Counted from the stretch's first letter, positions 714 through 24,000 are shown. The stretch: 24,000 nt of DNA from Desulfobulbaceae bacterium (GCA_011389815.1 JAABTP010000001.1:1003-25002); one strand, 5' to 3'. The notes: generated from the letters alone by a model not told the origin. Numbers and translations: made by a program.

Positions 714-1919
714 ATGTCCTTCCTCTACAATGCCCTTTCTTCCTCCTGGAACCTGCTCAATCAATCAGCAGTCTATATGCTCTTTGGTTTATTGATTGGT
801 GGACTGCTTAAAGAATATCTTTCCCCTACCTATGTGGCAAACCATTTGGGTTCCGGGCGATTTCGTTCAGTATTCAAGGCAGCTTTACTCGGTATTCCTA
901 TTCCGCTCTGCTCCTGCGGTGTGTTACCCGCAGCAGCAACCCTGAAAAAACAAGGGGCCAATAACGGGGCTGTGACGGCCTTTTTGATCTCCACTCCAGA
1001 ATCAGGGGTTGATTCTATTTCCATCACTTGGGCTTTGCTTGATCCGATCATGACTATTGCCCGCCCGGTTTCTGCTTTTATCTCTGCGGCCATTGCTGGT
1101 ACAGCTGAGAACCTTCTTGCATCTTCCCAGCCAGCCTCCTCAACGCATCAACAGCAACATGAGGTGTCTAAAAAACATTCCTGTGGTTGTGGCTGTGACC
1201 AGGAAGAAGAGAAAGAAAAGGCAGGACGAGCTGGCAGGACTGCACAGGGGTTTTTGAGAGAACTCCCTGGTAAACTTACATCAGGGATCAAATATGCAAT
1301 CTTTGATATCTGGGAAGAGCTGGCAGGCTGGTTTATGATCGGTATCCTGCTGGCCGGAGTCATCACGGTGCTTCTGCCAGATACTTTTATCAGATCATAT
1401 CTTGGTGGTGGCCTCAGCTCCATGCTCCTGATGCTGGTGATTGGTATTCCTCTCTATATCTGTGCAACTGCTTCCACCCCCATTGCTGCGGCCTTTCTCC
1501 TCAAAGGGGTCAGTCCGGGAGCAGCTCTGGTGTTTCTTCTGGTTGGTCCGGCCACCAATGTGACCTCGCTGTCTGTCCTGGTGGGTTTGTTGGGCAAACG
1601 GGCTGTGGTTATTTATCTCACCTCAATTGCTTTGGTCAGTGTGATTTGCGGTTTGATCCTGGATGCAGTGTATGGCATGCTCGGTATTTCCGTTATTGCA
1701 GCAGTGGCAAAGCACGGTGAAATGATGCCTGAAGAATTGACCGTGGTTGCCAGTATTATTTTGCTCATCTTTTCCATTCGTCCGATAAAAAGGAGTCTTC
1801 GACGTCGTTTTGTCTTGAAACAAGGCGGCTGTTGTTCCACCGATGCCAGCTCCTGTGGCTGTGGCGAGGAAATAATGCAGCCCCTGCAATCTTTAGGTGA
1901 TTTACGAAAAAAGCAATAA
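714..1919 (+). CDS. Polytopic permease of the DUF318/ArsP-like family (SO_0444-type putative metal transporter) with Cys-rich loop and tail
   Basis: 401-aa ORF with many hydrophobic segments. The conserved-looking LCSCGVLP motif and the two-half architecture match the family. It carries a central HSCGCGCDQEEEKEK loop and a C-terminal GGCCSTDASSCGCGEE tail. Confidence 0.75.
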   Translation: MSFLYNALSSSWNLLNQSAVYMLFGLLIGGLLKEYLSPTYVANHLGSGRFRSVFKAALLGIPIPLCSCGVLPAAATLKKQGANNGAVTAFLISTPESGVDSISITWALLDPIMTIARPVSAFISAAIAGTAENLLASSQPASSTHQQQHEVSKKHSCGCGCDQEEEKEKAGRAGRTAQGFLRELPGKLTSGIKYAIFDIWEELAGWFMIGILLAGVITVLLPDTFIRSYLGGGLSSMLLMLVIGIPLYICATASTPIAAAFLLKGVSPGAALVFLLVGPATNVTSLSVLVGLLGKRAVVIYLTSIALVSVICGLILDAVYGMLGISVIAAVAKHGEMMPEELTVVASIILLIFSIRPIKRSLRRRFVLKQGGCCSTDASSCGCGEEIMQPLQSLGDLRKKQ

Positions 1920-3218
1920 TTATCGTTCCAGCACAACAACAGACTCAATATGGCTGGTCTGGGGAAACATATCCACAGGAATAACCTGCGTAATTTTATA
2001 CCCCTGTACGCAAAGGGTGTTCAGATCCCGGGCAAGGGTGGCTGGATCACAGGAAACATAGATGATTTTTTCCGGCTTCAGGCGGGGCAATAAGGCGATG
2101 TCTTTGCCTACGCCACTGCGGGGTGGATCAAGAAGGATTATATCTGTTTTTTCTCCCTGATCGACAAGCTGTTGCAGAGCGTCCCGAACATCGGCAACAA
2201 AGAAACAGGCTGATATTCCTGCTTGAAGGGCATTCTTTTCTGCCCAATGGATGCTTTCCTGGTTTCCCTCAATACCAGTAATGGTTCCTCCGCAGCATCC
2301 AAGGGGTATAGAGAAATTGCCCATGCCGCAGTAAAGATCAAGAACGGTTTTTCCTTGAAGATCGCCAGCAGCTTCGCAGACTACGTTGATTAATTGTTCA
2401 TTCTGACCAGGATTGACCTGGGAAAAACAGCCTCCTGACCAGGATAAGGAGCAGCTTGTATTGTCGTGCTTTTTAAGCTGAATGTGCTGACTGAGTGGGT
2501 CTGCTTGGGGATAAAGGTATTGAAAGCCTTTCAAGCTCTGCCAGCCTATCTGGTGTATTGTTGAGATACTGTTGAGCTTCTGAAGTTTTTGCCGTATGGA
2601 AGGCGGCAGTTTTTTCTGTTTATTTCCTTTGAGGACAAGGGTGATTTTTCCATCAGCAGGGGACTCCAGTAGCTCAAGTTCCGGGCAGGTCTGAGCTAAG
2701 GGCTGGAGGACTTCGGTCATATTTAGTTCAGCCAGAGCAGAACAAATTCCCTGGCTTGCCACCAGACATTCTGGAATCGGGATAAAGGTATTGCTCCTTT
2801 TCTGAAAAAAACCAAGCTGGCCAGAGCTATTGATCTTGAGGCGGAGGCGATAGCGATAACCCCACTGAGCTGGGGAGGCAAGAGGATTATCAACATGCTC
2901 TAAGGGTAGTTTGGCACGACGTAATGACTCCTCGACAATACCCTTTTTGATGCGGAGTTGTTCCTGGTAACTGCCATGCTGGAGATCGCAGCCACCGCAT
3001 TCTTCGTACAAAGGGCAGGAAGGGGTAATTCGGCCTGGAGAGGGCAAGAGGATGGTGTTGATCCGTCCTTCAAGATAACCGGATTTCTTCTTTTCTTCAT
3101 GCACCACCATATTTTCATCTGCAAGAGTAAGCGGAATCATGATAACCTGTCCCTCTGCTGTCCGGGCCAGTCCTTTGCCACTGGCTATAATTTTTTCAAT
3201 AGTGACAGTATGTTTCAT
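1920..3218 (-). CDS. rlmD: 23S rRNA (uracil-C5)-methyltransferase, RumA/RlmD (TrmA family) with TRAM domain and Fe-S cysteines
   Basis: 432-aa ORF with an N-terminal TRAM-like segment. Cys cluster is CPLYEECGGCDLQH. SAM motifs are VLDLYCGMGNFSIPL, DPPRSG and YVSCDPATLARD. Its stop abuts the stop of the convergent permease. Confidence 0.8.
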   Translation of the reverse strand: MKHTVTIEKIIASGKGLARTAEGQVIMIPLTLADENMVVHEEKKKSGYLEGRINTILLPSPGRITPSCPLYEECGGCDLQHGSYQEQLRIKKGIVEESLRRAKLPLEHVDNPLASPAQWGYRYRLRLKINSSGQLGFFQKRSNTFIPIPECLVASQGICSALAELNMTEVLQPLAQTCPELELLESPADGKITLVLKGNKQKKLPPSIRQKLQKLNSISTIHQIGWQSLKGFQYLYPQADPLSQHIQLKKHDNTSCSLSWSGGCFSQVNPGQNEQLINVVCEAAGDLQGKTVLDLYCGMGNFSIPLGCCGGTITGIEGNQESIHWAEKNALQAGISACFFVADVRDALQQLVDQGEKTDIILLDPPRSGVGKDIALLPRLKPEKIIYVSCDPATLARDLNTLCVQGYKITQVIPVDMFPQTSHIESVVVLER

Positions 3219-3306
3219 AGAAAGTCCTGGTAACCTGTTTCGGGAGCGTTCATGGAAAAAATATTGTTGATTTTGCTTTAAAAATATTGTGAAAGCCTGT
3301 TGTTTA

Positions 3307-3336
3307 TTGACAGGGAATACCTCTTGGTGCTACAGT
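3307..3336 (+). promoter_or_regulatory. Candidate sigma-70 promoter for the tatA pair
   Basis: TTGACA (3307-3312), an 18-nt spacer, then TACAGT (3331-3336), about 75 nt upstream of the tatA ATG. Read by eye only. Confidence 0.3.
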
Positions 3337-3411
3337 GACCTACCGTTCTGTTGCGTACAGGACGGATTATTCTTACTACGTACGAAATAAACTGTAAAGA
3401 GGTGAGAGAGT

Positions 3412-3594
3412 ATGTTCGGACTCGGAATGCCTGAAATGATTATCATCCTGGTTATTGTTGTTATTATTTTCGGGGCTGGAAAACTGCCTGAAATTGGTTC
3501 TGGTATCGGAAAAGGGATCAAGAATTTCAAAGATGCCACCAAGAGCGATGATGACCCGAAACCCATAGAAGACAGCAGTAGCAAGGAAAGCTGA
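3412..3594 (+). CDS. tatA: Twin-arginine translocase subunit TatA/E
   Basis: 60 aa: [42 protein letters not shown]... This is the canonical TatA TM helix, FG hinge and amphipathic helix. GAGAG lies upstream of the ATG. Confidence 0.9.
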
Positions 3595-3646
3595 AAAGAT
3601 TAAAAAAAATGCTGTTTAATATGGATAACGTGAAGAGAGGACTTGT

Positions 3647-3901
3647 ATGTTCGGACTCGGAACCCCTGAACTTGTTGTTATAATGACTATTGCCTTCCTG
3701 CTCTTTGGTGGAAAGAAATTACCAGAGATTGGCTCTGGCCTTGGCAAGGCCATAACTTCGTTTAAAAAGGGACTAGGTGAGGTTGAGGATACTGCTGGCT
3801 TGGGAGAAATGACCAAGAAGCTTCCTGGTGTTCGGAAGGTCAATGCGGTGCAGGAAAAGATTGAGAAAGCAAAAAATGTTGGTAAGATGATAACCAAATA
3901 G
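3647..3901 (+). CDS. Second TatA/E-family translocase subunit (longer paralog, possibly TatB-like role)
   Basis: 84 aa: [43 protein letters not shown]... It is homologous to the upstream tatA over the first 45 aa and has a longer charged tail. AGAGG lies upstream of the ATG. Confidence 0.8.
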   Translation: MFGLGTPELVVIMTIAFLLFGGKKLPEIGSGLGKAITSFKKGLGEVEDTAGLGEMTKKLPGVRKVNAVQEKIEKAKNVGKMITK

Positions 3902-3942
3902 GGGTAATCCCCTGTGATTGTCCAAGAGATCCAAGGCGGTTG

Positions 3943-7261: not shown

Positions 7262-8998
7262 ATGCCTCCCATCATCACCTTTATAGGCTGGCACGATTCC
7301 GGTAAAACCACGCTGGCTGCCCAGGTTGTCCGTTTGCTGAAAAAGCGCGGTTATTCGGTGGCTGTGATTAAATCCACCAAGGACACCGGGTTGCTGCCGA
7401 ATCAGGAGGGTACCGATACAGGGGCTTATACGCAGGCCGGGGCAGATGCGGTCACTCTGATAGCTCCAGATCTGTTGGTTATGACTGCTGATCGCCCGGA
7501 AAAAAATCTTCCTGCCTTGGCCCGGCGTTTTTTTGCTGATATGGATCTGGTGATTGGCGAGGGCTTTAAAGGGGCAGATAAGGTCGATAAGATTGAGGTC
7601 TTTAGAGGGCAGGGCATGCGCCTTGCGGAGCAGGTTTCCGGGGTTATTGCCGCGGCAACGGATCAGAAAAGTTTTGATCGGCCCCCTGCAGATTCTTTGG
7701 TTTTCCCCCTTAATCAACCCAAAAAAATAGCTGATTTTCTCGAAAAAGAATATATCCGAATACCCTCTGCGCATAGTCGCACGGTTCATTTGATCACAAC
7801 AAGACAAGGTAGACTTATGAAGAATATGCAGTCATTCACTGTGACCCAACCCACCCGAATTCAGTTTGGTGCAGGCACAGTGCAGGATCTTGGTACAACA
7901 GTGAAAGATTTTAACGGGACCAAGGTGCTCTTGGTGGTAGATCCCGGTTTGGTCAAGGCAGGTTTGCTGGAGCGTCTGACAGCCCCTCTGGAGCAGGAAG
8001 GTATTCCCTTCACAGTCTATGATGAGATTGACCCGGAACCCGGCCTGAAATTGGCTGATAAGGGTTGCGCCATTGCCCAGGAAGCAGGCTGTGATTGCGT
8101 GGTGGGTGCTGGTGGTGGCTCTGCAATGGATGTTGCCAAGGCCATTGCCATTCTGCTGACCAATGGTGGCAAGGCTGTGAATTATCTGGGGCTGGGCCTG
8201 ATTAAAAAACCAGGTGTGCCCAAGATCATGGTGCCCACCTCTGCCGGAACCGGTGCTGAGGTGACTTTCACAGCTGTGTTCATCAACGAAGCAACAGGCT
8301 CTAAAGGCGGCATGAACGGCGACCCTCTCTATCCAGATGCAGCCATCCTGGATCCGGAATTGACTCTGACCCTGCCTGCCAAGGTCACAGCCTATACCGG
8401 TATTGATGCCCTGACCCATGCCCTGGAAGCCTATACCTCCACCCAGGCCCATGTCATCTCAGAGATGTATTCCCTGGAAGCCATTGATCTGATCGCCCGC
8501 AACCTGCCAGCTGCTTGTGCCAATGGTGGTAATCTTGCAGCCCGTTCAGCCATGCTCATGGGATCGCTGCTGGGCGGTAAGGCCTTGGCCACTGCCGGAG
8601 TCGGTCTGGTGCATGCCATGGCCTACCCTATGGGTGGGATGTTCGGGGTGCCGCACGGGTTAGCCAATGCGGTCCTCCTGCCTTATGTGGTTCAATATAA
8701 TCTGCCGGGTAATTATGAAAAATTTGCTTTGCTTGCTGAGGTGCTGGGACAAAATACAGAAGGCTTATCCCGACGTGATGCGGCCTCCCTCTGTGTTGAG
8801 GCACTGTATGATCTGAATGCGGACATAGGTATTCCTGCTACTCTTAAGGATTTGGATATCCCTTTTGATAAGATTCCAGAGATGGCAGAAATTGCCCTGA
8901 CCGTGACCCGGCCGGTGGAAAATAATCCCCGCCAGCCCTCCCTTGCTGATGTGATTGCGGTGTATGAACGGGCTTATCGGCATGAGGTTGAGGTGTAA
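7262..8998 (+). CDS. Single ORF joining MobB (molybdopterin-guanine dinucleotide biosynthesis GTPase, about 7262-7760) to an iron-containing alcohol dehydrogenase (from internal ATG 7817 to 8998)
   Basis: The N-terminus MPPIITFIGWHDSGKTTLAAQVVRLLKKRGYSVAVIKSTKD...VIGEGFK matches MobB (P-loop, EGFK). From MKNMQSFTVTQPTRIQFGAGT the sequence is Fe-ADH (GGGSAMDVAKA, His-rich metal site region). There is no stop codon between the two parts. Confidence 0.8.
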   Translation: MPPIITFIGWHDSGKTTLAAQVVRLLKKRGYSVAVIKSTKDTGLLPNQEGTDTGAYTQAGADAVTLIAPDLLVMTADRPEKNLPALARRFFADMDLVIGEGFKGADKVDKIEVFRGQGMRLAEQVSGVIAAATDQKSFDRPPADSLVFPLNQPKKIADFLEKEYIRIPSAHSRTVHLITTRQGRLMKNMQSFTVTQPTRIQFGAGTVQDLGTTVKDFNGTKVLLVVDPGLVKAGLLERLTAPLEQEGIPFTVYDEIDPEPGLKLADKGCAIAQEAGCDCVVGAGGGSAMDVAKAIAILLTNGGKAVNYLGLGLIKKPGVPKIMVPTSAGTGAEVTFTAVFINEATGSKGGMNGDPLYPDAAILDPELTLTLPAKVTAYTGIDALTHALEAYTSTQAHVISEMYSLEAIDLIARNLPAACANGGNLAARSAMLMGSLLGGKALATAGVGLVHAMAYPMGGMFGVPHGLANAVLLPYVVQYNLPGNYEKFALLAEVLGQNTEGLSRRDAASLCVEALYDLNADIGIPATLKDLDIPFDKIPEMAEIALTVTRPVENNPRQPSLADVIAVYERAYRHEVEV

Positions 8999-14025: not shown

Positions 14026-14589
14026 ATGAAAGCACAAGCAGTACACGAAAACGTAAGCGTTCAGGACTACCTTGCCGGAGAGCAGCAGACCGAGATCCGA
14101 CATGAATACATCAACGGCACCACCCATGCTCTAGGCGGGGCAAGTCCGTCCCACAACCTGATTGCTGGCAATGTGTTTGTCGCCCTCCATGCAGCGGCCC
14201 GCAACAGTCCGTGTCAGGTCTTTATGGCGGACATGAAGGTGTACCTCAACATTGCGGGAGAAGATGTCTTTTACTACCCGGACCTGCTGGTCAGCTGTGA
14301 CCCGGAGGATAACGAAGACTATTACCGCACCCGTCCCTGTTTGATCGTTGAGGTGCTTTCGCCGACAACCGAGCGTATTGATCGGCGGGAAAAATTCATG
14401 GCCTATACCTCGCTCCCCTCATTGCAAGAGTATGTCCTTATTGCTCAGGATCGACAGGCGGTTATGGTCTTTCGGCAAAAAAAGAGCTGGAAGCTGGAGT
14501 TGTTTCAGGGCGGGGAGCAGTTTTCTTCTTCTAATTGCCTGAAGTGTACGTTACCGCTTGTGGAGGTTTATCACGGGGTGGAGTTATGA
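14026..14589 (+). CDS. Uma2-family (DUF820) PD-(D/E)XK-like endonuclease
   Basis: 187 aa. The pattern ...EIRHEYINGT...PSHNLIAGNV...ADMKV...YYPDLLVSC...RPCLIVEVLSPTTERIDRREKFMAYTSLPSLQEYVLI is the typical Uma2 family signature. Confidence 0.8.
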   Translation: MKAQAVHENVSVQDYLAGEQQTEIRHEYINGTTHALGGASPSHNLIAGNVFVALHAAARNSPCQVFMADMKVYLNIAGEDVFYYPDLLVSCDPEDNEDYYRTRPCLIVEVLSPTTERIDRREKFMAYTSLPSLQEYVLIAQDRQAVMVFRQKKSWKLELFQGGEQFSSSNCLKCTLPLVEVYHGVEL

Positions 14590-15867: not shown

Positions 15868-16947
15868 ATGCGTGATGTGATCAACAATAAGCTCAATAAT
15901 GCACAGCAGGTGCAAGCTGGGCTTGACGCTCTTCAAGAGCCATTCCAGGATCAGGGTTTTTCCCCTTTTGTCCAGACACAATGTCCGGCCATGGAAAAGG
16001 TGTTTGCAGATGTCCGGGCCGTGGCCTTGACAAAGAGCACTGTGCTGCTCACTGGCGAAACCGGAACCGGCAAGGGTGTGTTGGCCCGCCTGCTCCATAA
16101 TTACAGCAACCGGCGTGATGAGCCTTTTATCCAGGTGCATTGCGGGGCAATTCCTGATACCCTGCTGGAAAGCGAGCTCTTTGGGCACGAGAAAGGGGCC
16201 TTTACCGGTGCAATCAAAAGGAAACAGGGCCGATTCGAGATGGCGAATAATGGCACGGTGTTTCTTGATGAGATCGGCACCATCACTCCGGCAGCCCAGA
16301 TTAAACTGCTCCAGGTTCTTCAGGATGGTGTCTTGCAACGGATAGGCAGTGAACAGGAAACCAGTGTGAATGTCCGGGTTGTTGCGGCAACCAATGAGAA
16401 TCTGAAACAGCTCTGTGAGGAAAAGGCCTTTCGAAGCGATCTCTATTACCGGCTCAATGTCTTTCCCATTGAACTGCCCCCGCTACGAGAACGCACCCAG
16501 GATATTCCTGGTCTGACCACAGGCTTTATCCAACGATTCAACCGGTTCTATACAAAAAACATTACCGGGATCCACCCCCAGGTTATTGATGCCTTTCGCA
16601 AGTATTCCTGGCCAGGAAATATTCGAGAGCTGGAGAATATTATAGAGCGTGCCTGCATTATTGAGCCTTCTTCTGTGCTCTCGCCAGACAGTTTTCCGGC
16701 AGAGCTCTTTATCAATCAGGATGGTTCCCTGACCCACATTCAGATGGACACTATGTTCTCTTTGGCAGAAGTGCGAAAGCGGGCAATTGAGGAGATTGAG
16801 CGATGTTACCTCAAGCAGGTCTTGACCAGTACCCAGGGGAAGATCAACCGAAGTGCAGAAGCAGCAGGCGTCAGTACCCGGCAGTTGCATAAGTTGATGA
16901 AGAAGTATGGTTTGAAGAGGGAAGAGTTTACAAAACCGTCTTTGTAA
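15868..16947 (+). CDS. Sigma-54-dependent transcriptional activator (bEBP) lacking an N-terminal regulatory domain (PspF/HrpS-like architecture)
   Basis: Walker A GETGTGKG begins about 60 aa from the start. [15 protein letters not shown] (GAFTGA loop), Walker B VFLDEIG, and RVVAATN are present. The C-terminal Fis-type HTH is [26 protein letters not shown]. Confidence 0.9.
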
Positions 16948-17072
16948 ATCTGTGATGAGGATGCCGATATGCATGTATCTGTTGCTACAGCGAGACAGGG
17001 AATCCTGGAGCGTGCTGTTCAGTGTCCTCAGCGCATACAGAGGACGATCACCTTTATTTGGAGCAAAGAGAA

Positions 17073-17792
17073 ATGAACGATCTGAAGTTGTCTGATAATG
17101 GGAGAAATGTGTTTAACTTCCCGGAAGCAATCCCTGGCCAGTTCATTATCACGGACAAGGAGCTTGACCAGAATGTGTATGAGCAGTTCATGACTGAGCT
17201 GGAATGGCTTGATCCTCAGCCGGATTACGCCATGTTGCTTCGTCAAGGCCAAGAGCTGTCCGGTAGGGCGTTGTCTCTTGCTCAAAAAAAGAATATTCTG
17301 GCACAACTCGCCCGCTGGGGTACGGTAGATGCCTATCAGCTTGTGCAGAAGTATTGCAAGTGCTGTGATTCATCCCTCGAACCCTGGAGTCAGGTAGCCC
17401 TGTATGAATGTCGGATGCGGATGGAGTCGGACCTGCTTGATGAGCCTGTGGGCCTGATCTCAACCGGGCTGGGTGGAGATGGTGAGCGGTTGCGCTATAT
17501 CTTTGTCCTTGCCTTGCAAGCGGAGTGTCCGGGAGAGGAAAAGCAGCAGGAGATGCGGGAGGCCTTGGATATGGTCTGCCGAAAGCATCGTTCGCGTGTG
17601 GAAGAGTTGCAATTCCATCCTTCTTATCTTTTCGTGCAGGTGCTTGTGCCGATAGATGTTGCGGCCGGAAAGGTGATTGAAGGCAGTATCGCCCGGTTGA
17701 ATCGGCAGGAGGAGCAGGTAGGACAGAACTACATGGCCACTAACGTTGCTGTGCCGACCGAGGAGGAGATACAGAAGTTTCTGGGTGGTTAG
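17073..17792 (+). CDS. Hypothetical protein (239 aa), no family recognised
   Basis: The ORF looks protein-like in composition. The ATG at 17073 is preceded by GGAG (17060-17063); the track's GTG at 17022 is an alternative start. It lies directly downstream of the bEBP gene on the same strand. Confidence 0.6.
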   Translation: MNDLKLSDNGRNVFNFPEAIPGQFIITDKELDQNVYEQFMTELEWLDPQPDYAMLLRQGQELSGRALSLAQKKNILAQLARWGTVDAYQLVQKYCKCCDSSLEPWSQVALYECRMRMESDLLDEPVGLISTGLGGDGERLRYIFVLALQAECPGEEKQQEMREALDMVCRKHRSRVEELQFHPSYLFVQVLVPIDVAAGKVIEGSIARLNRQEEQVGQNYMATNVAVPTEEEIQKFLGG

Positions 17793-19121: not shown

Positions 19122-21077
19122 CTATGCTTCCTTCGCCCCTTGCCGTTTTGCCCGCACCTGTGCCAATCCCTCGCGCCATTCTTCCAATTTGGGATGACCG
19201 ATCTCCTCTTCAATCCGCACGGCCTGGCTGATGTATTCCTCTGCCTTGGCAAGGTCGCCCATGTCTTCGTAGGTGCGACCGAGGTTCCAGCAGCTTTGCG
19301 CCTCCCCGGCCCTGTCTCCCAGCTCGCGTCGGATTGCCAATCCTTGTTTTAAATACTCCAAGGCTGATGACCTATTGCCTTGAGTACGGTAAATTGCGGC
19401 TATGTTGGTTAAGGCTGCACTTTCACCGATTCTATCGCTGCTCTCCATGCTGATAGGCAGGCTTTGTTGTAAATAGGTCAATGCTGTTTCATAGTCGCCT
19501 ATCTTCATATAAACCATAGCCATATTATTTAATGTTGTGCCTTCTCCAACCCTGTCACCTGCCTCTCGCTGCATCATCAGACTTTGCGTGTAACATTGCA
19601 AAGCCTGTTCATAATTGCATTGTATGTCATAAATGAGACCGATATTATTCAGAGTAAGACTTTCGCCCTGTCTGTATCCCCATTCACGATGAATCAGCAA
19701 ACTCTGCTCGTAATATTCCAGTGCTCTTGCATACTCACCGAGCTTCCAGCAAGTTTCACCTAATTCATTGAGACACCAGCTTTCATCTCGCCTCTCTTCT
19801 TTCAACCTTGCCGCATTCAATCTCATGCTTACAATGGTCAGCTTTTCTGTCCAATATCCCTGTCGGTCTAAGTAAATGATAATTGCTCGTACCAAGGCTT
19901 GCACTTCATCCAACAGCCTACTGTTCAGGCAGCTTTCCGTAAGGCGCAGGCAGTGCGCCCTTTCTTTGTCCAGGCAGGCATAGCCCTCCAATCCAGCTTG
20001 GCTTTGTTCCTCGCAGAAATAAATATAATAGGCAGCCAGCCGCTCCAAGCTCTCCTTGCTCAAAGCCAACTCGGTGCGAGAGTAGGTATGAATCAGCGCA
20101 TGGCTTATCTGCCAGCGTTCCTCCTTGCGCTCCATCATGCCATAATTGACCAACTCGTTTAATGCCTTGCGGCCTCGGCGTTCATCGCACTCAAATATGG
20201 CACCAACCGGTTCAGAAGCAATCGGCGCAAAGGCCAAGCAACCTGCCGCGCCCAGCGCAAGTCGGGCATCATCGCTCACCTGAGCTACGCTGCGGCGCAG
20301 CAGCAAGGCTGCATTCTCTTCTTGATGAGAACCGCTACCCAGCTCCTTGAGTGGCTCCCTTTCTATCCAGTGCAGGTAGTCCGCCGCACTCTCGCCCGTG
20401 CTTCTGAGATACCGACCAGCGAGTTGCAAGGCTACTGGCCATCCGCCAAGAATGTTGCAGATACCCTGCACGCTTGCATCATCATCTACCTCCCCGCTAT
20501 ACTTGCGAAATGCCTCTGCTGCCTCTTGCTCATACAGCGGTGTAAGATCAAGCCGGAAACCCAGCGCATCTGATCTTTTCCTACTGGTGATCAATACTCC
20601 GCATGTGCCACCCAGTCTAAGCATGGTTGGTAAGTCGTCTGCTTCCTCCGTACCATCCAAGATAAGCAGCATCTTTCTACCCGCCAAGGCAAGCAGCACA
20701 GCAGTTTCCAAAGTCGGCTCAGGTTCAATATTCAAAGATTGGGCAATATGTTTTAAGGCATGTGCTATTTCTGGCTGATGGTAAAAACTATGGGAGATAA
20801 TGCCATCCGGGAACCTGCTTTCTTCCAATTTATGCACCGCCTGAGCTGCCAATGCACTTTTACCTATGCCGCCCGGTCCGCAGATGGTTATAATCTTGCC
20901 GGGACGCAATGACTCAAAGAGCAGGGCAAGCTCTTCTTCACGACCGACAAAACAGTCATTAGGTAGAGGAAGTTGACATGGGACTTGAGAAGGCTCAGGA
21001 ATGTAGCAAGCAATGGTTCCATCGCCTTGCGCAATATTGACGTCTTTCGTGCCGAAGGAAATGGACTTGTTTATCAT
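19122..21077 (-). CDS. STAND NTPase: NB-ARC (AP-ATPase) domain + C-terminal TPR array, with no recognisable effector domain
   Basis: 651 aa. It has FVGREEELALL, Walker A GPGGIGKSALA, Walker B MLLILDGTEE, VLITSR, and the GxP motif LGGWPVALQLAG. About five kinesin-light-chain-type TPRs are present (...LNNIGLIYDIQCNYEQALQCY..., ...LNNMAMVYMKIGDYETALTYL..., ...LTNIAAIYRTQGNRSSALEYL...). Only about 40 aa precede the ATPase. Confidence 0.9.
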   Translation of the reverse strand: MINKSISFGTKDVNIAQGDGTIACYIPEPSQVPCQLPLPNDCFVGREEELALLFESLRPGKIITICGPGGIGKSALAAQAVHKLEESRFPDGIISHSFYHQPEIAHALKHIAQSLNIEPEPTLETAVLLALAGRKMLLILDGTEEADDLPTMLRLGGTCGVLITSRKRSDALGFRLDLTPLYEQEAAEAFRKYSGEVDDDASVQGICNILGGWPVALQLAGRYLRSTGESAADYLHWIEREPLKELGSGSHQEENAALLLRRSVAQVSDDARLALGAAGCLAFAPIASEPVGAIFECDERRGRKALNELVNYGMMERKEERWQISHALIHTYSRTELALSKESLERLAAYYIYFCEEQSQAGLEGYACLDKERAHCLRLTESCLNSRLLDEVQALVRAIIIYLDRQGYWTEKLTIVSMRLNAARLKEERRDESWCLNELGETCWKLGEYARALEYYEQSLLIHREWGYRQGESLTLNNIGLIYDIQCNYEQALQCYTQSLMMQREAGDRVGEGTTLNNMAMVYMKIGDYETALTYLQQSLPISMESSDRIGESAALTNIAAIYRTQGNRSSALEYLKQGLAIRRELGDRAGEAQSCWNLGRTYEDMGDLAKAEEYISQAVRIEEEIGHPKLEEWREGLAQVRAKRQGAKEA

Positions 21078-21352
21078 ATCTTGATCCTCTTAAACAGTAG
21101 TATTTCAAGCTCAAGATAAGCAGCTTGATCAGCTAGCTCATCAGCGCGAATCTCTCTGAAACACTCTTGCAGTTCCTTTAAGTGTTCAGCAAGCCGCTCT
21201 GCTCTCATGTTTGCTCTTTCCTCTTCTCGAATTGCCCGTGTATAATCTTCTAACGGAACACCCTGATAAACGACACTTCCCCGATCTTTGGCAACAGACT
21301 GAGGCCCCTTGGCGGAAAAATTATCTCCATGAATTTCATCTTGTTCGCCCAT
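21074..21352 (-). CDS. Small protein B (92 aa): N-terminal GDNF...AKD module + charged coiled-coil-like tail
   Basis: Its stop overlaps the STAND gene start (ATGA at 21077-21074). Composition is natural, and the N-terminal 33 aa are homologous to protein A. Confidence 0.65.
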   Translation of the reverse strand: MGEQDEIHGDNFSAKGPQSVAKDRGSVVYQGVPLEDYTRAIREEERANMRAERLAEHLKELQECFREIRADELADQAAYLELEILLFKRIKI

Positions 21353-21372
21353 GCGAGTTCCCTGCCCTTATT

Positions 21373-21765
21373 TCATCCGATCCAGTTCGTCCACTGCTCG
21401 CCGCAATACTTCAAGCCTTGTCCCAGCATATTCCCTACCACCACTGCCGCCTTGATGGTCTTGGAGCTTTCCAGAAGAACAGCAGTTGCATCCCGGAGAC
21501 TCTGCACGATCTTCTTACGATCCGGCGGATTTCGTTGCGCCTGCCGCAGCGCACCGTTGACTTCGTGCTCGACATCCTCCCTGACCTCCTGCGGCACAGG
21601 CAGGTTAGCCAATTTTTGCTTTACTTCATTCAACAGGGTAAGCAGTTCCTCAACAGGCACCTGCTGACCTTCATTGACAGTAAGCGTGGCACTGTCTTTG
21701 GCTATGTATTGCTTGCCGCCGTCCGTCTCGAAGTTATCCCCAAGGATGATTTTGTTGCCGCTCAT
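21373..21765 (-). CDS. Small protein A (130 aa): N-terminal GDNF...AKD module + helical region + short hydrophobic C-terminal segment
   Basis: GGGAGGG lies 5 nt upstream of the ATG at 21765. It lies 20 nt upstream of protein B and is the first gene of the operon, divergent from hrpA. Confidence 0.65.
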   Translation of the reverse strand: MSGNKIILGDNFETDGGKQYIAKDSATLTVNEGQQVPVEELLTLLNEVKQKLANLPVPQEVREDVEHEVNGALRQAQRNPPDRKKIVQSLRDATAVLLESSKTIKAAVVVGNMLGQGLKYCGEQWTNWIG

Positions 21766-21910
21766 ATGTTCCCTCCCAGTATCATGGTATTATCCTGAAC
21801 ATATAGTCTATTATGCGAGAAAGGGCGAGCGAAAAGGGGCTTTGCATCCTCCCCATGAATCGGGTAAAGTGGCAACCAGAAACGTTTCTCAAGAAAAACA
21901 ACCGGACGCA

Positions 21911-24000
21911 ATGGCACGCTTTCCCATGCAGCTCAACTACCCAGGCAACCTCCCCATCACCGACCGCAAGGACGAGATCGTCCAGGCCGTTCGGGATAAT
22001 CAGGTCATCGTTATTGCAGGTGATACCGGCTCCGGCAAGACAACCCAGCTCCCCAAGATGTGCCTGGAAGCAGGTCGGGCAGGGGAGGGGGCCATGATCG
22101 GCTGTACCCAGCCCCGCCGTATTGCCGCCCTGTCGGTGACCGAGCGGGTTCAGGAGGAGCTGGGGCAGGCCCGGACGGTGGGGTCCAAGATTCGCTTTCA
22201 GGATCGCACCGGCCCGAAAACCCGGATCAAGTTCATGACCGACGGGATTCTGCTGGCCGAGACCCGGGGCGACCGCGATCTGCGGGCCTACGACACCCTG
22301 ATCATTGACGAGGCCCATGAGCGCAGCCTGAACATCGACTTTCTGCTCGGCTACCTGCATCAATTGCTGGCCCGCCGCCATGACCTCAAGCTGATCATTG
22401 CCTCGGCCACCATTGATACTGAAAAATTCAGTAAGCATTTCCATGATGCCCCGATTATCCAGGTGGAAGGACGCACCTATCCGGTCACGGTGGAATACTG
22501 CCCCCCGGACAACGAGGACGATGAAAGCAGTCAGGATATTGACCGGTTGGTCGCTGATCAGATTGTCAGGCTTATGGCTCGGCCCGGCGGGGATATCCTG
22601 ACCTTTCTCCCCACGGAGCGGGACATCCTGGACACTGTGGAACTGCTGCGCAGGGAACTGGCAGATCGCGCCCTGATCCTGCCCCTGTTCGGACGGCTCC
22701 AGGGCGGGGAGCAGCGGCGTATCTTCCGTTCTGCCCGGCAGCGCAAGATCATCGTGGCCACCAATGTGGCAGAGACCTCCATCACGGTGCCGGGCATAGA
22801 ATGCGTGGTGGATACCGGCCTGGCGCGGATCGCCCATTATAATGTGCGGGCCGGGACCACCCATCTGCCGGTGGCCCGGATTTCCAGGGCCAGTTGTGAT
22901 CAGCGGGCAGGCCGTTGCGGTCGGGTCGGGCCGGGGCGTTGCATCCGCTTGTACAGCGAGGAGGATTACCTTGCCCGTGATGAATTCACTCTGCCTGAGA
23001 TCCAGCGTTCCAATCTGGCCGAGGTTATCCTGCAGATGCTCAGCCTGCGTCTGCCCGAACCGCGCAACTTCCCTTTTATCGATCCGCCTGCCCCCAGAGC
23101 GGTCAATGACGGCTTCCGTATTCTTCGGGAACTGGGTGCCCTTGACAGCGAGCAGCGGCTCACCCGGCAAGGCAGGATCATGGCCCGCCTGCCTCTGGAC
23201 CCGCGTATTTCCCGGATGATCATTGAGGGTGCGGAGCTGGGCGTGCTCCGGGAAACCGCGATCATTGCTGCGGCCCTGGCGATTCAGGATCCCCGTGTCC
23301 AACCGCCGGATAAGCTGGAAAAGGCCCGGCAGGCCCACCGCGCCTTTCATTATCCTGGCTCGGATGTCCTGACCCTGGTTAATATGTGGGATGCCTGTCG
23401 AGGTGAAGCCCTGTCTTCGCCCGGTTCGTCTGATGACGGGCAGGGCCGCCGGGATGATAAAGAGCAGACACGCAGGTCTGCCCCTACGCCGTCCGCCGGG
23501 CAGCTGCGCCGTTTTTGCGAGGCTAATTTCTGCTCCTGGCAACGGATGCGGGAGTGGTTTGATATCCATGATCAGATTCTCCGTATCCTCCAGCAGCATA
23601 AGGAGTTTGCCGGTGCCCTTGATCGCATTGGTGATTCGCACAAGGACGAAGTAGGGGCACGGCATGCCGTGCCCCTACCGGAATCGCAAGATTCTTCGGT
23701 CAAAACATCTGCCCCTACAGCCCCGGCCCTGGTACATCAGGCCCTGACCGCAGGTTTTCTCCGCAATATTGCCCTGCGCAAGGAGAAGAATACCTACCAG
23801 ATCTCCGGCAACCGGGAGGCCATGCTCTTTCCCGGTTCCGGCCTGTATAATAAGGGAGGGCAGTGGATCGTGGCAGCGGATTTTGTCCATACCTCGCAGC
23901 TCTTTGCCCGCATGGCCGCCACCATTGAAGTGGACTGGCTGGAACGCCTGGGCGGTGACCTCTGCAAACGTTCCTACTCGGACCCGCATTGGCAGAAAAA
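21911..24000 (+). CDS. hrpA: ATP-dependent RNA helicase HrpA (DEAH-box), N-terminal about 696 codons; 3' end outside window
   Basis: Hand translation of frame 2 gives MARFPMQLNYPGNLPITDRKDEIVQAVRDNQVIVIAGDTGSGKTTQLPKMCLEAGR...GCTQPRRIAA...TDGILLAE...IIDEAHERSLNIDFLLGYL...IASATID...VATNVAETSITVPGI...QRAGRCGR...SYSDPHWQK. It is open to base 24000 and absent from the track because it has no stop. The start could be ATG 21911 or ATG 21926. Confidence 0.9.
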   Translation, partial: MARFPMQLNYPGNLPITDRKDEIVQAVRDNQVIVIAGDTGSGKTTQLPKMCLEAGRAGEGAMIGCTQPRRIAALSVTERVQEELGQARTVGSKIRFQDRTGPKTRIKFMTDGILLAETRGDRDLRAYDTLIIDEAHERSLNIDFLLGYLHQLLARRHDLKLIIASATIDTEKFSKHFHDAPIIQVEGRTYPVTVEYCPPDNEDDESSQDIDRLVADQIVRLMARPGGDILTFLPTERDILDTVELLRRELADRALILPLFGRLQGGEQRRIFRSARQRKIIVATNVAETSITVPGIECVVDTGLARIAHYNVRAGTTHLPVARISRASCDQRAGRCGRVGPGRCIRLYSEEDYLARDEFTLPEIQRSNLAEVILQMLSLRLPEPRNFPFIDPPAPRAVNDGFRILRELGALDSEQRLTRQGRIMARLPLDPRISRMIIEGAELGVLRETAIIAAALAIQDPRVQPPDKLEKARQAHRAFHYPGSDVLTLVNMWDACRGEALSSPGSSDDGQGRRDDKEQTRRSAPTPSAGQLRRFCEANFCSWQRMREWFDIHDQILRILQQHKEFAGALDRIGDSHKDEVGARHAVPLPESQDSSVKTSAPTAPALVHQALTAGFLRNIALRKEKNTYQISGNREAMLFPGSGLYNKGGQWIVAADFVHTSQLFARMAATIEVDWLERLGGDLCKRSYSDPHWQK
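23651..23720. repeat. REP-like module inside the hrpA coding sequence
   Basis: A perfect 28-bp palindrome GTAGGGGCACGGCATGCCGTGCCCCTAC (23651-23678) is followed by GAATC-gcaa-GATTC and a terminal GCCCCTACAG (23711-23720). It has the same building blocks as the intergenic composite at 10721-10790. It is translated in frame as VGARHAVPLPESQDSSVKTSAPT. Confidence 0.8.

Follow-up and report, generated by a model that had tools for sequence, protein, structure and literature searches.

A short N-terminal G/N/Q-rich motif common to an NB-ARC/TPR STAND NTPase and two small neighbouring proteins suggests an NLR-type module in a cable bacterium

We analysed a stretch of 24,000 nucleotides from a Desulfobulbaceae bacterium (GCA_011389815.1, JAABTP010000001.1:1003-25002), hereafter called the window, and in particular three adjacent genes that encode two small proteins, A and B, and a STAND NTPase, S1, with an NB-ARC ATPase and a TPR array. 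Candidatus (Ca.) Electrothrix sp. encodes proteins with 100% identity to A and to B, and the host is a cable bacterium. The extreme N-termini of the three proteins carry versions of one short motif, which we call the head. With somewhat better than even confidence, we read the locus as the module of a filamentous bacterium that resembles NOD-like receptor (NLR) systems and whose components would be linked by an N-terminal G/N/Q-rich motif of ~28 aa, with no folded adaptor. The firmer part of this reading is that the head couples the receptor to its partners, which we consider quite probable.

The open reading frame (ORF) calls bore out the gene arrangement described in an earlier reading of the same DNA made from the sequence alone (the sequence-only reading). 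A (130 aa), B (92 aa) and S1 (651 aa) are co-oriented and translationally linked on the minus strand, A and B being separated by 20 nt and the stop codon of B overlapping the start codon of S1 in the tetranucleotide ATGA. Shine-Dalgarno-like sequences lie upstream of A (GGGAGGG) and of S1 (AAGAGGA). For A, B and S1, the ratios of nonsynonymous to synonymous substitution rates (dN/dS) obtained against orthologues were 0.16-0.18, 0.27-0.38 and 0.17-0.22, respectively. All three are real coding genes under purifying selection, which also settles in the affirmative whether the two small ORFs are genuine genes.

The sequence-only reading had proposed that the first 33 residues of A and B are homologous. 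BLASTP of A against B gave no match, whereas hhalign aligned the two family profiles over 38 columns with a probability of 91.6% and an E value of 8e-7; the head is thus detectable by profile methods only. We also scored the N-termini with a general hidden Markov model (HMM) of the motif, built solely from proteins outside cable bacteria. A, B and S1 obtained 21.2, 14.8 and 14.3 bits, respectively, and none of the 500 shuffles made of each sequence matched these scores (the shuffles, which keep composition, had a mean of about -1 to -2.5 bits, a standard deviation of ~3 and maxima of 7-8 bits). In a six-frame window scan comprising 549 stop-to-stop segments, the N-termini of A, B and S1 were the top three, with scores of 17.3, 11.8 and 8.3 bits, and the fourth segment scored 3.9 bits. 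The likeness of the S1 N-terminus, which had been described as faint, was thereby recovered, and on these profile scores we assign the N-termini of A, B and S1 to one head family.

When the heads are pooled, N (2.8x), Q (2.4x), G (2.0x) and I (1.5x) are over-represented and L (0.14x), R (0.11x) and P (0.48x) under-represented. This composition appears close to the bias published for fungal motifs and for bacterial amyloid signalling sequences (BASS), which are rich in G, N, Q, V and I and poor in L, P and K, except that V (0.69x) and K (0.93x) are off the BASS bias. In AlphaFold2 (AF2) monomer models the heads are disordered, and that of B shows only tiny beta bridges. Pfam gave the head no named domain, in agreement with the initial impression. 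Searches of a word index, whether queried with A, with B or with an alignment of 31 head sequences, returned just close relatives or short fragments, and the fragment contexts recovered with the head (L025-L028, loci being designated here by L and proteins by P numbers) were degraded and uninformative. A profile search matched three loci among genome contigs and zero among viral contigs.

The STAND protein had been credited with all NB-ARC motifs and a TPR array, and both were confirmed. PF00931 was matched with an E value of 1.3e-8 (34.9 bits vs a cut-off of 23.5), and six TPR families, including TPR_12 (E 1e-36), TPR_1, TPR_2, TPR_8 and TPR_10, were above cut-off at residues 435-640. The motifs were read by eye as Walker A (GPGGIGKS, residues 67-74), Walker B (LLILDG), the sensor (ITSR), GxP (GGWPVAL) and the conserved histidine (in WQISHAL). 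As had been predicted, Pfam found no domain in residues 1-42 and no N-terminal effector domain fused to S1; nor did it find a helix-turn-helix, SARP or other DNA-binding domain in the protein. By its domain content S1 is an NB-ARC STAND NTPase (NLR-like) without a fused output domain. The solved structures closest to its TPRs are the TPRs of LGN/Pins and AfsR type. In PADLOC, S1 matched nothing but a generic TPR model; none of the STAND models, those of Avs included, was hit. Within S1, the dN/dS analysis indicated that the head is less constrained than the remainder of the protein.

The tail of A, considered helical in the sequence-only reading, is predicted by AF2 to form a four-helix bundle (helices at residues 38-53, 59-76, 83-101 and 105-120, with a predicted local distance difference test, pLDDT, of 69-90 in the block). 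It follows a head (residues 1-33) with pLDDT <50 and no secondary structure, and terminates in a conserved VGNMLGQGLxYCGEQWTNW. Within Electrothrix the dN of the A head is 0.013-0.05, so that the head is especially constrained in this group. Searching a word index with A yielded 20 relatives in addition to P0001, a protein of Ca. Electrothrix sp. identical to A, and the A profile retrieved 65 relatives at E<=1e-3 among 1.84 billion representative proteins. A belongs to no Pfam family, its PADLOC match is partial (PDC-M14B, E 4e-6, only profile positions ~160-260 of 265), and Foldseek of the A model against the PDB gave only generic bundles with E>0.1 and no specific structural relative.

The family defined by the bundle is conserved in its core (EVKGAEIQAKK...PDKxKI) and highly so at its end (GNLLGKAIxWCGEQWxxW); in A, the best-conserved part of the bundle is its glycine-zipper-like, Trp-rich C-terminal helix. 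In every relative with an uncut N-terminus, a G/N/Q-rich segment precedes the bundle. Some of the relatives are small proteins that start with the motif, and in the larger ones the motif sits between an N-terminal domain and the C-terminal bundle. These N-terminal domains comprise pentapeptide repeats, CHAT, caspase (Peptidase_C14), TIR_2 with EAD8, HNH, dCTP-deaminase-like (DCD), HetE-N (in P0061), DUF4062, a weak HEPN_Swt1 and a full ROCO (LRR-Roc-COR). One motif+bundle protein is annotated on a Fischerella plasmid. Judging from these relatives, the tail of A is a widespread four-helix-bundle module and no orphan sequence, and the motif+bundle module is associated with typical immune or cell-death effector domains. 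The ROCO relative is an 841-aa protein (L022, 35-2560; LRR, Roc, COR-A and COR-B) with an A-type four-helix bundle as its C-terminal end; its architecture indicates a GTPase-type switch fused to the bundle module.

Protein B combines a type I-like head (residues 1-33, of which 1-18 are disordered in AF2) with one long helix (residues 34-91, pLDDT ~90) that is probably a coiled-coil. It matched no family in Pfam or PADLOC, and its five relatives are apparently confined to Electrothrix and related sediment metagenomes. In the loci compared, B and S1 always co-occur and are always joined by the 4-nt ATGA overlap, which is kept in 5/5 distinct B-S1 loci (the window, L001, L003, L005 and L024). The head of B resembles STAND heads. 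An origin of B as a frameshifted STAND remnant is unsupported for its tail, which showed no similarity to STAND genes in any frame.

The position between hrpA and an HU-like gene is syntenic across Electrothrix and its content varies, which agrees with its description as an accessory-looking stretch. Here the window and E. gigas have A-B-S1 and E. scaldis has A-B-S1-S2; in L007, L014, L016, L017 and L018, an S2-type STAND directly follows A. The locus or STAND is truncated or fragmented in L009, L004 and L012, and toxin-antitoxin genes are also among the contents of this position. An A-B-S1 unit is found in L005 too, at another genomic position. The paralogue S2 is a 662-aa protein encoded directly after S1 in Ca. 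Electrothrix scaldis (L001, CP138355, 8694-10682), for which PADLOC likewise gave a generic TPR model only. S1 is 54% identical to S2 from residue 27/41 on, and the N-terminus of S2 differs from that of S1 and equals the head type of A. The A head (MSGNKIILGDNFETDGGKQYIAKDSATL) and the S2 N-terminus of E. scaldis (MSDNKIIYGDNFESGGGDQYNLKDQATL) are identical at 20/28 positions (E 4e-10). The nucleotide identity of A and S2 is 62-63/90 in the coding part and 12-13/40 upstream. Since the similarity begins at the ATG and many differences are synonymous, it is kept at the protein level; the same two observations rule out a recent duplication of the regulatory region as the origin of the likeness.

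Homologues of A co-occur with STAND genes in Electrothrix, Electronema and Vecturithrix. In at least eight loci (L007, L009, L014, L016, L017, L018, L012 and L013), the gene that comes immediately after A encodes a STAND whose head matches that of A, and Pfam confirmed the STANDs of these loci as NB-ARC proteins. L012 belongs to the freshwater cable bacterium Ca. Electronema aureum and L013 to Ca. Vecturithrix sp., which we take to be a filamentous bacterium of a different phylum than the cable bacteria. An interval of exactly 20 nt separates A from the gene behind it, be this B or an S2-type STAND (10 distinct loci), with Vecturithrix (459 nt) as the only exception. The occurrence of a STAND with the A head after A supports the suggestion, made in the sequence-only reading, of an output or regulator recruited in trans through a common head. 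No S2 or S2 remnant was found anywhere in the window. Filamentous growth is common to the three host lineages with a name (cable bacteria, Vecturithrix and Fischerella), which is consistent with the known host bias of such systems.

Some of these sister loci have further features of their own. In Ca. Electrothrix gigas (L003, CP147989; 6001-6354 and 1899-5840), A is frameshifted after about residue 65 and its product has 117 aa; B and S1 are intact, and the adjoining hrpA is split into several ORFs. The frameshift and the split hrpA reflect either decay or an assembly error. L005 encodes a further NB-ARC/TPR STAND of 683 aa (1855-3906), with two consecutive motif-like N-terminal segments (GGEQNIAQGDHSIGQQNN ... 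GDGCIIAGTGNIYIGQYG), surrounded by HicAB, BrnT and PIN toxin-antitoxin genes. The A-STAND pair of Ca. Vecturithrix sp. (L013, 1906-12515) lies between ORFs of 1041 aa and 954 aa that, by eye, look like restriction-modification components; two small toxin-antitoxin-like genes are present as well, and this setting resembles a defence island.

Heads could be divided into subtypes. The type I consensus is GDNFESGGGxQNIAQxQATANQTNY and the type II motif NSGSGEQNIAQGDGAIGKQVN, while type III starts with GRDNIEI... and type IV with AGRDYxE.... With subtype HMMs, A obtained 25.9 bits for type I and 2.5 for type II, B 13.9 and 0.1, and the S2 proteins of various loci 20-43 and 1-7. The order is inverted for S1, which scored 8.7 bits for type I and 12.8 for type II in the window, and 7.9 and 19.1 bits in E. 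scaldis. The notion of one head common to A, B and S1 was therefore upheld at the level of the family and not at that of the subtype, S1 being type II-like, A and B type I, and the type I STAND of A missing here. In the loci examined, the subtypes of adjacent partner and STAND agree, type I going with type I and type II with type II. In L030, for instance, a type II motif-bundle protein is followed after 36 nt by a type II NB-ARC/TPR STAND. A type II bundle protein (P0094) also occurs in Electrothrix sp. AR5. In two small proteins, P0092 and P0095, a predicted transmembrane segment takes the place of the bundle behind a type II motif; they may represent another partner type.

For comparison with known amyloid motifs, HMMs of BASS1 and BASS3-9 were built from the published BASS pair table. 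In the slot preceding the bundle, a type IV example was BASS1-like (12.2 bits, z 4.7) and a type III example BASS4-like (10.1 bits, z 3.2). The S1 head of E. scaldis reached 5.4 bits (z 2.4), and the characteristic strings of the window heads are absent from the pair table.

A STAND whose N-terminus bears the motif only, the presence of the motif on an adjacent small protein, the tight spacing and the filamentous host together lead us to propose an amyloid-signalling chain. Binding of a ligand by the TPR array would drive ATP-dependent oligomerisation of the STAND, and this would cluster the N-terminal motifs. The clustered motifs would nucleate a beta-sheet (amyloid-like) assembly able to recruit and convert the matching motif on the partner. 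A would be the partner on the output side, conversion of its head releasing or polymerising the bundle. Because the best-conserved part of the bundle is its glycine-zipper-like, Trp-rich helix, membrane damage or growth arrest would be the likeliest activity, and we favour membrane perturbation. B could act as an S1-bound adaptor that supplies a type I head, through which S1, with its degenerate type II head, might communicate with A. The degrees of confidence differ between these steps. We infer that the assembly is amyloid in nature, which way the signal travels, what the bundle does and what part B plays; templating of an amyloid-like kind with A as the output has, in our view, an even chance of being correct, and both membrane damage and the adaptor role of B are more tentative than that.

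The same elements might be assembled into an architecture of prion-like immune signalling that has not been described so far, a mirror image of the HET-S/Bell arrangement, with the motif at the N-terminus of the executioner, the C-terminal helix of the bundle as the warhead and B as a detachable head that re-couples an S1 whose own head has drifted. This version is speculative and we regard it as unlikely. In cable bacteria, thousands of cells share one periplasmic conductor; if the mirror-image switch were real, it could serve to sacrifice or seal off infected or damaged cells of the filament.

Several observations weigh against an amyloid-signalling module. The sequence data would be explained just as well by a homotypic contact that is not amyloid. 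The S1 head of the window is type II-like (with only 12.8 bits) and the heads of A and B are type I, a mismatch that makes direct signalling from S1 to A uncertain. Against the HMMs of BASS1 and BASS3-9, the heads of A, B and S1 in the window did not exceed 4.7 bits (z <2). Cognate head pairs are only marginally closer than non-cognate ones, with a p value of 0.047 that is confounded by phylogeny. The motif of the partner is N-terminal, vs C-terminal in every described effector with an amyloid signalling motif (ASM). As for the partners themselves, no homologues of B were found outside the Electrothrix-like set and the role of B is purely inferential. An effector role of the bundle is a guess, unaccompanied by a specific structural match; the last helix of A is only moderately hydrophobic, and since the bundle is often fused to effector-bearing proteins, a regulatory or adaptor role would suit it equally.

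The head could accordingly be a homotypic adaptor of a non-amyloid kind, through which A and B would dock on the STAND oligomer in a stoichiometric and reversible manner (e.g., by beta-strand augmentation), as effector-associated domains (EADs) do. A and B would then be adaptors or regulators (inhibitor, chaperone or threshold-setter) and the effectors would be other bundle or motif proteins encoded elsewhere in the genome. The EAD principle, with a module present both on the NTPase and on the protein of the adjacent gene, is well documented, a constant bundle joined to effectors of many kinds behaves as an adaptor or regulator would and not as an effector, and the type II head+bundle protein P0094, found in another Electrothrix, makes it plausible that partners are encoded elsewhere. 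However, a head of just ~28 aa, disordered and G/N/Q-rich, is unlike folded EADs and gave no Pfam EAD match; in addition, the two-gene A-S2 units of two phyla hold no other candidate output, and same-slot motifs of relatives score as BASS1-like and BASS4-like. We consider this alternative rather unlikely. A different possibility is that A and B are orphans left by the decay of the locus, with A functionally paired to S2, which is lost here, and S1 to a type II partner at an unlinked site; that A, B and S1 are neighbours would then be functionally meaningless in this genome, and B would be what remains of a STAND gene's 5' end. The absence of S2 from the window and the difference in subtype between the S1 head and those of A and B would agree with this scenario, as would the head of B, closer to a STAND head (Electronema MSNQTEVHGDNY...) than to the A head. 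Decay is moreover visible in relatives, either in A (frameshifted in E. gigas) or in the STAND (truncated or fragmented in L009, L004 and L012). On the other hand, purifying selection acts on intact A, B and S1 genes both here and in several species, the ATGA overlap between B and S1 and the 20-nt gap between A and B are always kept, and A is maintained upstream of B-S1 in five distinct loci, although frameshifted in one of them (E. gigas). This makes decay improbable in our opinion.

S1 could finally be a signal-transducing regulator of the MalT, AfsR or FxSxx-TPR type with a housekeeping or developmental role, the small ORFs being unrelated to it. This would account for the weak partial matches to the corresponding models and for the likeness to AfsR structures. 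The NCBIfam scores of S1 were nevertheless far below the cut-offs (133 bits vs 300 for FxSxx_TPR, 81 vs 1430 for AfsR and 17 vs 537 for MalT) and covered only generic NB-ARC or TPR parts, so that S1 falls outside these characterised regulator families. With no DNA-binding domain in S1 according to Pfam, and with the shared heads and the conserved pairing left unexplained, we hold a regulator of this type to be very improbable. We therefore retain as our preferred reading an NLR-type module in which the N-terminal motif links STAND and partners.

The features of the locus and of its surroundings are listed in Table 1. On one side, hrpA (a DEAH/HA2/OB helicase) begins at ~21911 on the plus strand, divergent from the operon. 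A scan of the A/hrpA intergenic region for the sigma-70 consensus gave no strong site, and the consensus scan for a promoter or terminator of the operon none that was convincing. Antisense to hrpA, a 627-aa ORF on the minus strand (21782-23665) lies in a stretch of ~60% G+C, has no family and is almost certainly a shadow ORF and no gene. On the other side, downstream of the operon, lies the weak HU-DNA_bdg-like gene, so that both flanks named in the sequence-only reading were confirmed. In Electrothrix L001 and L009, the locus is flanked by a 357-aa gene that gave this weak HU-DNA_bdg match as well; at the equivalent flank of L003, a 357-aa gene has no recorded HU-DNA_bdg match. Further away, ~4.5 kb from the STAND locus, the window encodes an Uma2-family putative restriction endonuclease (14026-14589, plus strand), which is followed by a sigma-54 activator (15868-16947). 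A 578-aa ORF (7262-8998, plus strand) combines MobB (molybdopterin-guanine dinucleotide synthesis) with an iron-containing alcohol dehydrogenase, an unusual fusion. The remainder of the window consists of housekeeping genes.

Table 1. Features of the A-B-S1 locus and of its surroundings, in coordinates of the window
Feature	Coordinates	Strand	Basis
Gene A	21373-21765	minus	ORF, 130 aa
A head, residues 1-33, type I motif MSGNKIILGDNFETDGGKQYIAKDSATLTVNEG	21667-21765	minus	AF2 and HMM
A four-helix bundle, residues 38-120	21406-21654	minus	AF2
A-B spacer, 20 nt	21353-21372	minus	
Gene B	21074-21352	minus	ORF, 92 aa
ATGA overlap, B stop / S1 start	21074-21077	minus	sequence
S1, NB-ARC/TPR STAND	19122-21077	minus	ORF, 651 aa
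S1 head, residues 1-30, degenerate type II-like MINKSISFGTKDVNIAQGDGTIACYIPEPS	20988-21077	minus	motif HMM
NB-ARC ATPase module, residues 53-254	20316-20921	minus	Pfam PF00931
TPR array, residues 435-640, presumed sensor	19158-19775	minus	Pfam
Divergent A/hrpA intergenic region, presumed promoter region	21766-21910	no strand	sequence
HU-DNA_bdg-like ORF, 394 aa	17789-18973	minus	E 2.9e-5, below Pfam cut-off
256-aa ORF	17022-17792	plus	no family

NLR amyloid signalling has so far been defined by one layout, in which the effector domain comes first and the motif lies at its C-terminus. The loci described here point to a further motif family with at least two subtypes and to a four-helix bundle that follows the motif as a new, constant partner module on TIR, caspase/CHAT, HNH, dCTP-deaminase-like, ROCO and pentapeptide proteins. 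They also point to a reversed topology, which present motif-mining pipelines would overlook because they search the C-termini of effectors, and to two further filamentous lineages, the cable bacteria and Vecturithrix. If confirmed, these results would widen the search space for prion-like switches in prokaryotic immunity; the set of three genes is, moreover, compact and amenable to tests in E. coli.

In the literature, bacterial NLR amyloid signalling is reported mostly from Actinobacteria and Cyanobacteria, and the group to which Desulfobulbaceae cable bacteria belong, tabulated there as Proteobacteria, is reported to be poor in NLR-like proteins (Dyrka et al., 2020, 10.1101/2020.01.06.895854). 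Our literature search on cable bacteria combined with NB-ARC, NLR or amyloid found no paper connecting them, and a search for PDC-M14 found no publication. The C-terminal ~100 positions of PDC-M14B, the PADLOC profile for component B of the candidate system PDC-M14, are homologous to the motif+bundle of A (relatives down to E 4.8e-11); these profiles differ from A by their length of ~265 positions, with an N-terminal part that A does not have. Pfam detected in A or B no effector of the Bell, HeLo or other known executioner type, the bundle of A giving only generic matches.

Avs and NACHT/NB-ARC systems had been put forward as precedents in the sequence-only reading. The closest precedents are BASS and HET-S/NWD2 rather than Avs or EAD systems, although the logic of EAD coupling is the same. 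In EAD coupling, the same small module is present on the core NTPase and on the protein of a neighbouring gene (Kaur et al., 2020, PMC7159879). The system described here is alike in having a module on both NTPase and neighbour and a constant module combined with many effectors (TIR, caspase, HNH and others), and one bundle-bearing relative carries EAD8. In contrast, EADs are folded and mostly alpha-helical, whereas the motif is a disordered segment of 28 aa here, the folded bundle was never seen on the STAND side, and A, B and S1 matched none of the Pfam EAD families at E<=1. The Bab/Agp antiphage system of E. coli (BASS11; Ibarlosa et al., 2024, bioRxiv 10.1101/2024.11.07.622273) likewise consists of a small helical protein and a large TPR sensor, encoded by adjacent genes and having an amyloid motif in common, N-terminal in the sensor. 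The comparison concerns the layout. Agp has the architecture TPR-GreA/B-C-PIN and is no STAND, and in Bab the motif is C-terminal and the helical domain has an N-terminal hydrophobic helix.

Two systems of fungi are similar to the window in their layout. In HET-S/NWD2 of filamentous fungi, the NLR bears just a short motif at its N-terminus, which acts as template for the same motif in one or two separately encoded executioners, and in the three-gene cluster HELLP/SBP/PNT1, one motif is common to all three proteins. With both, the locus shares an NLR with a short N-terminal motif, one or two separate partners and a three-gene layout. The sequences are unrelated, and the fungal executioners (HeLo, HeLo-like, lipase) bear the motif C-terminally; nothing in the window points to pore formation. 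Sharing of a motif by "pairs (or triplets)" is a phrase also found in PMC12261475.

BASS1-10 are gene pairs of a Bell-domain effector and an NLR (Dyrka et al., 2020, bioRxiv 10.1101/2020.01.06.895854), and the ASM on the effector side is, as a rule in the literature, at the effector C-terminus. In the window, the partners have the motif at the N-terminus (A and B, residues 1-33), a four-helix bundle located C-terminal to the motif is the partner domain in place of an N-terminal Bell domain, a third, coiled-coil partner (B) is present, and the heads fall outside BASS1 and BASS3-9 by HMM. In common with BASS, a short (~25 aa) G/N/Q-rich motif is found both at the extreme N-terminus of the NB-ARC/TPR protein and on an adjacent, collinear small protein, the genes are closely spaced or overlapping, and the hosts are multicellular or filamentous; the compositional bias appears similar, apart from V and K.

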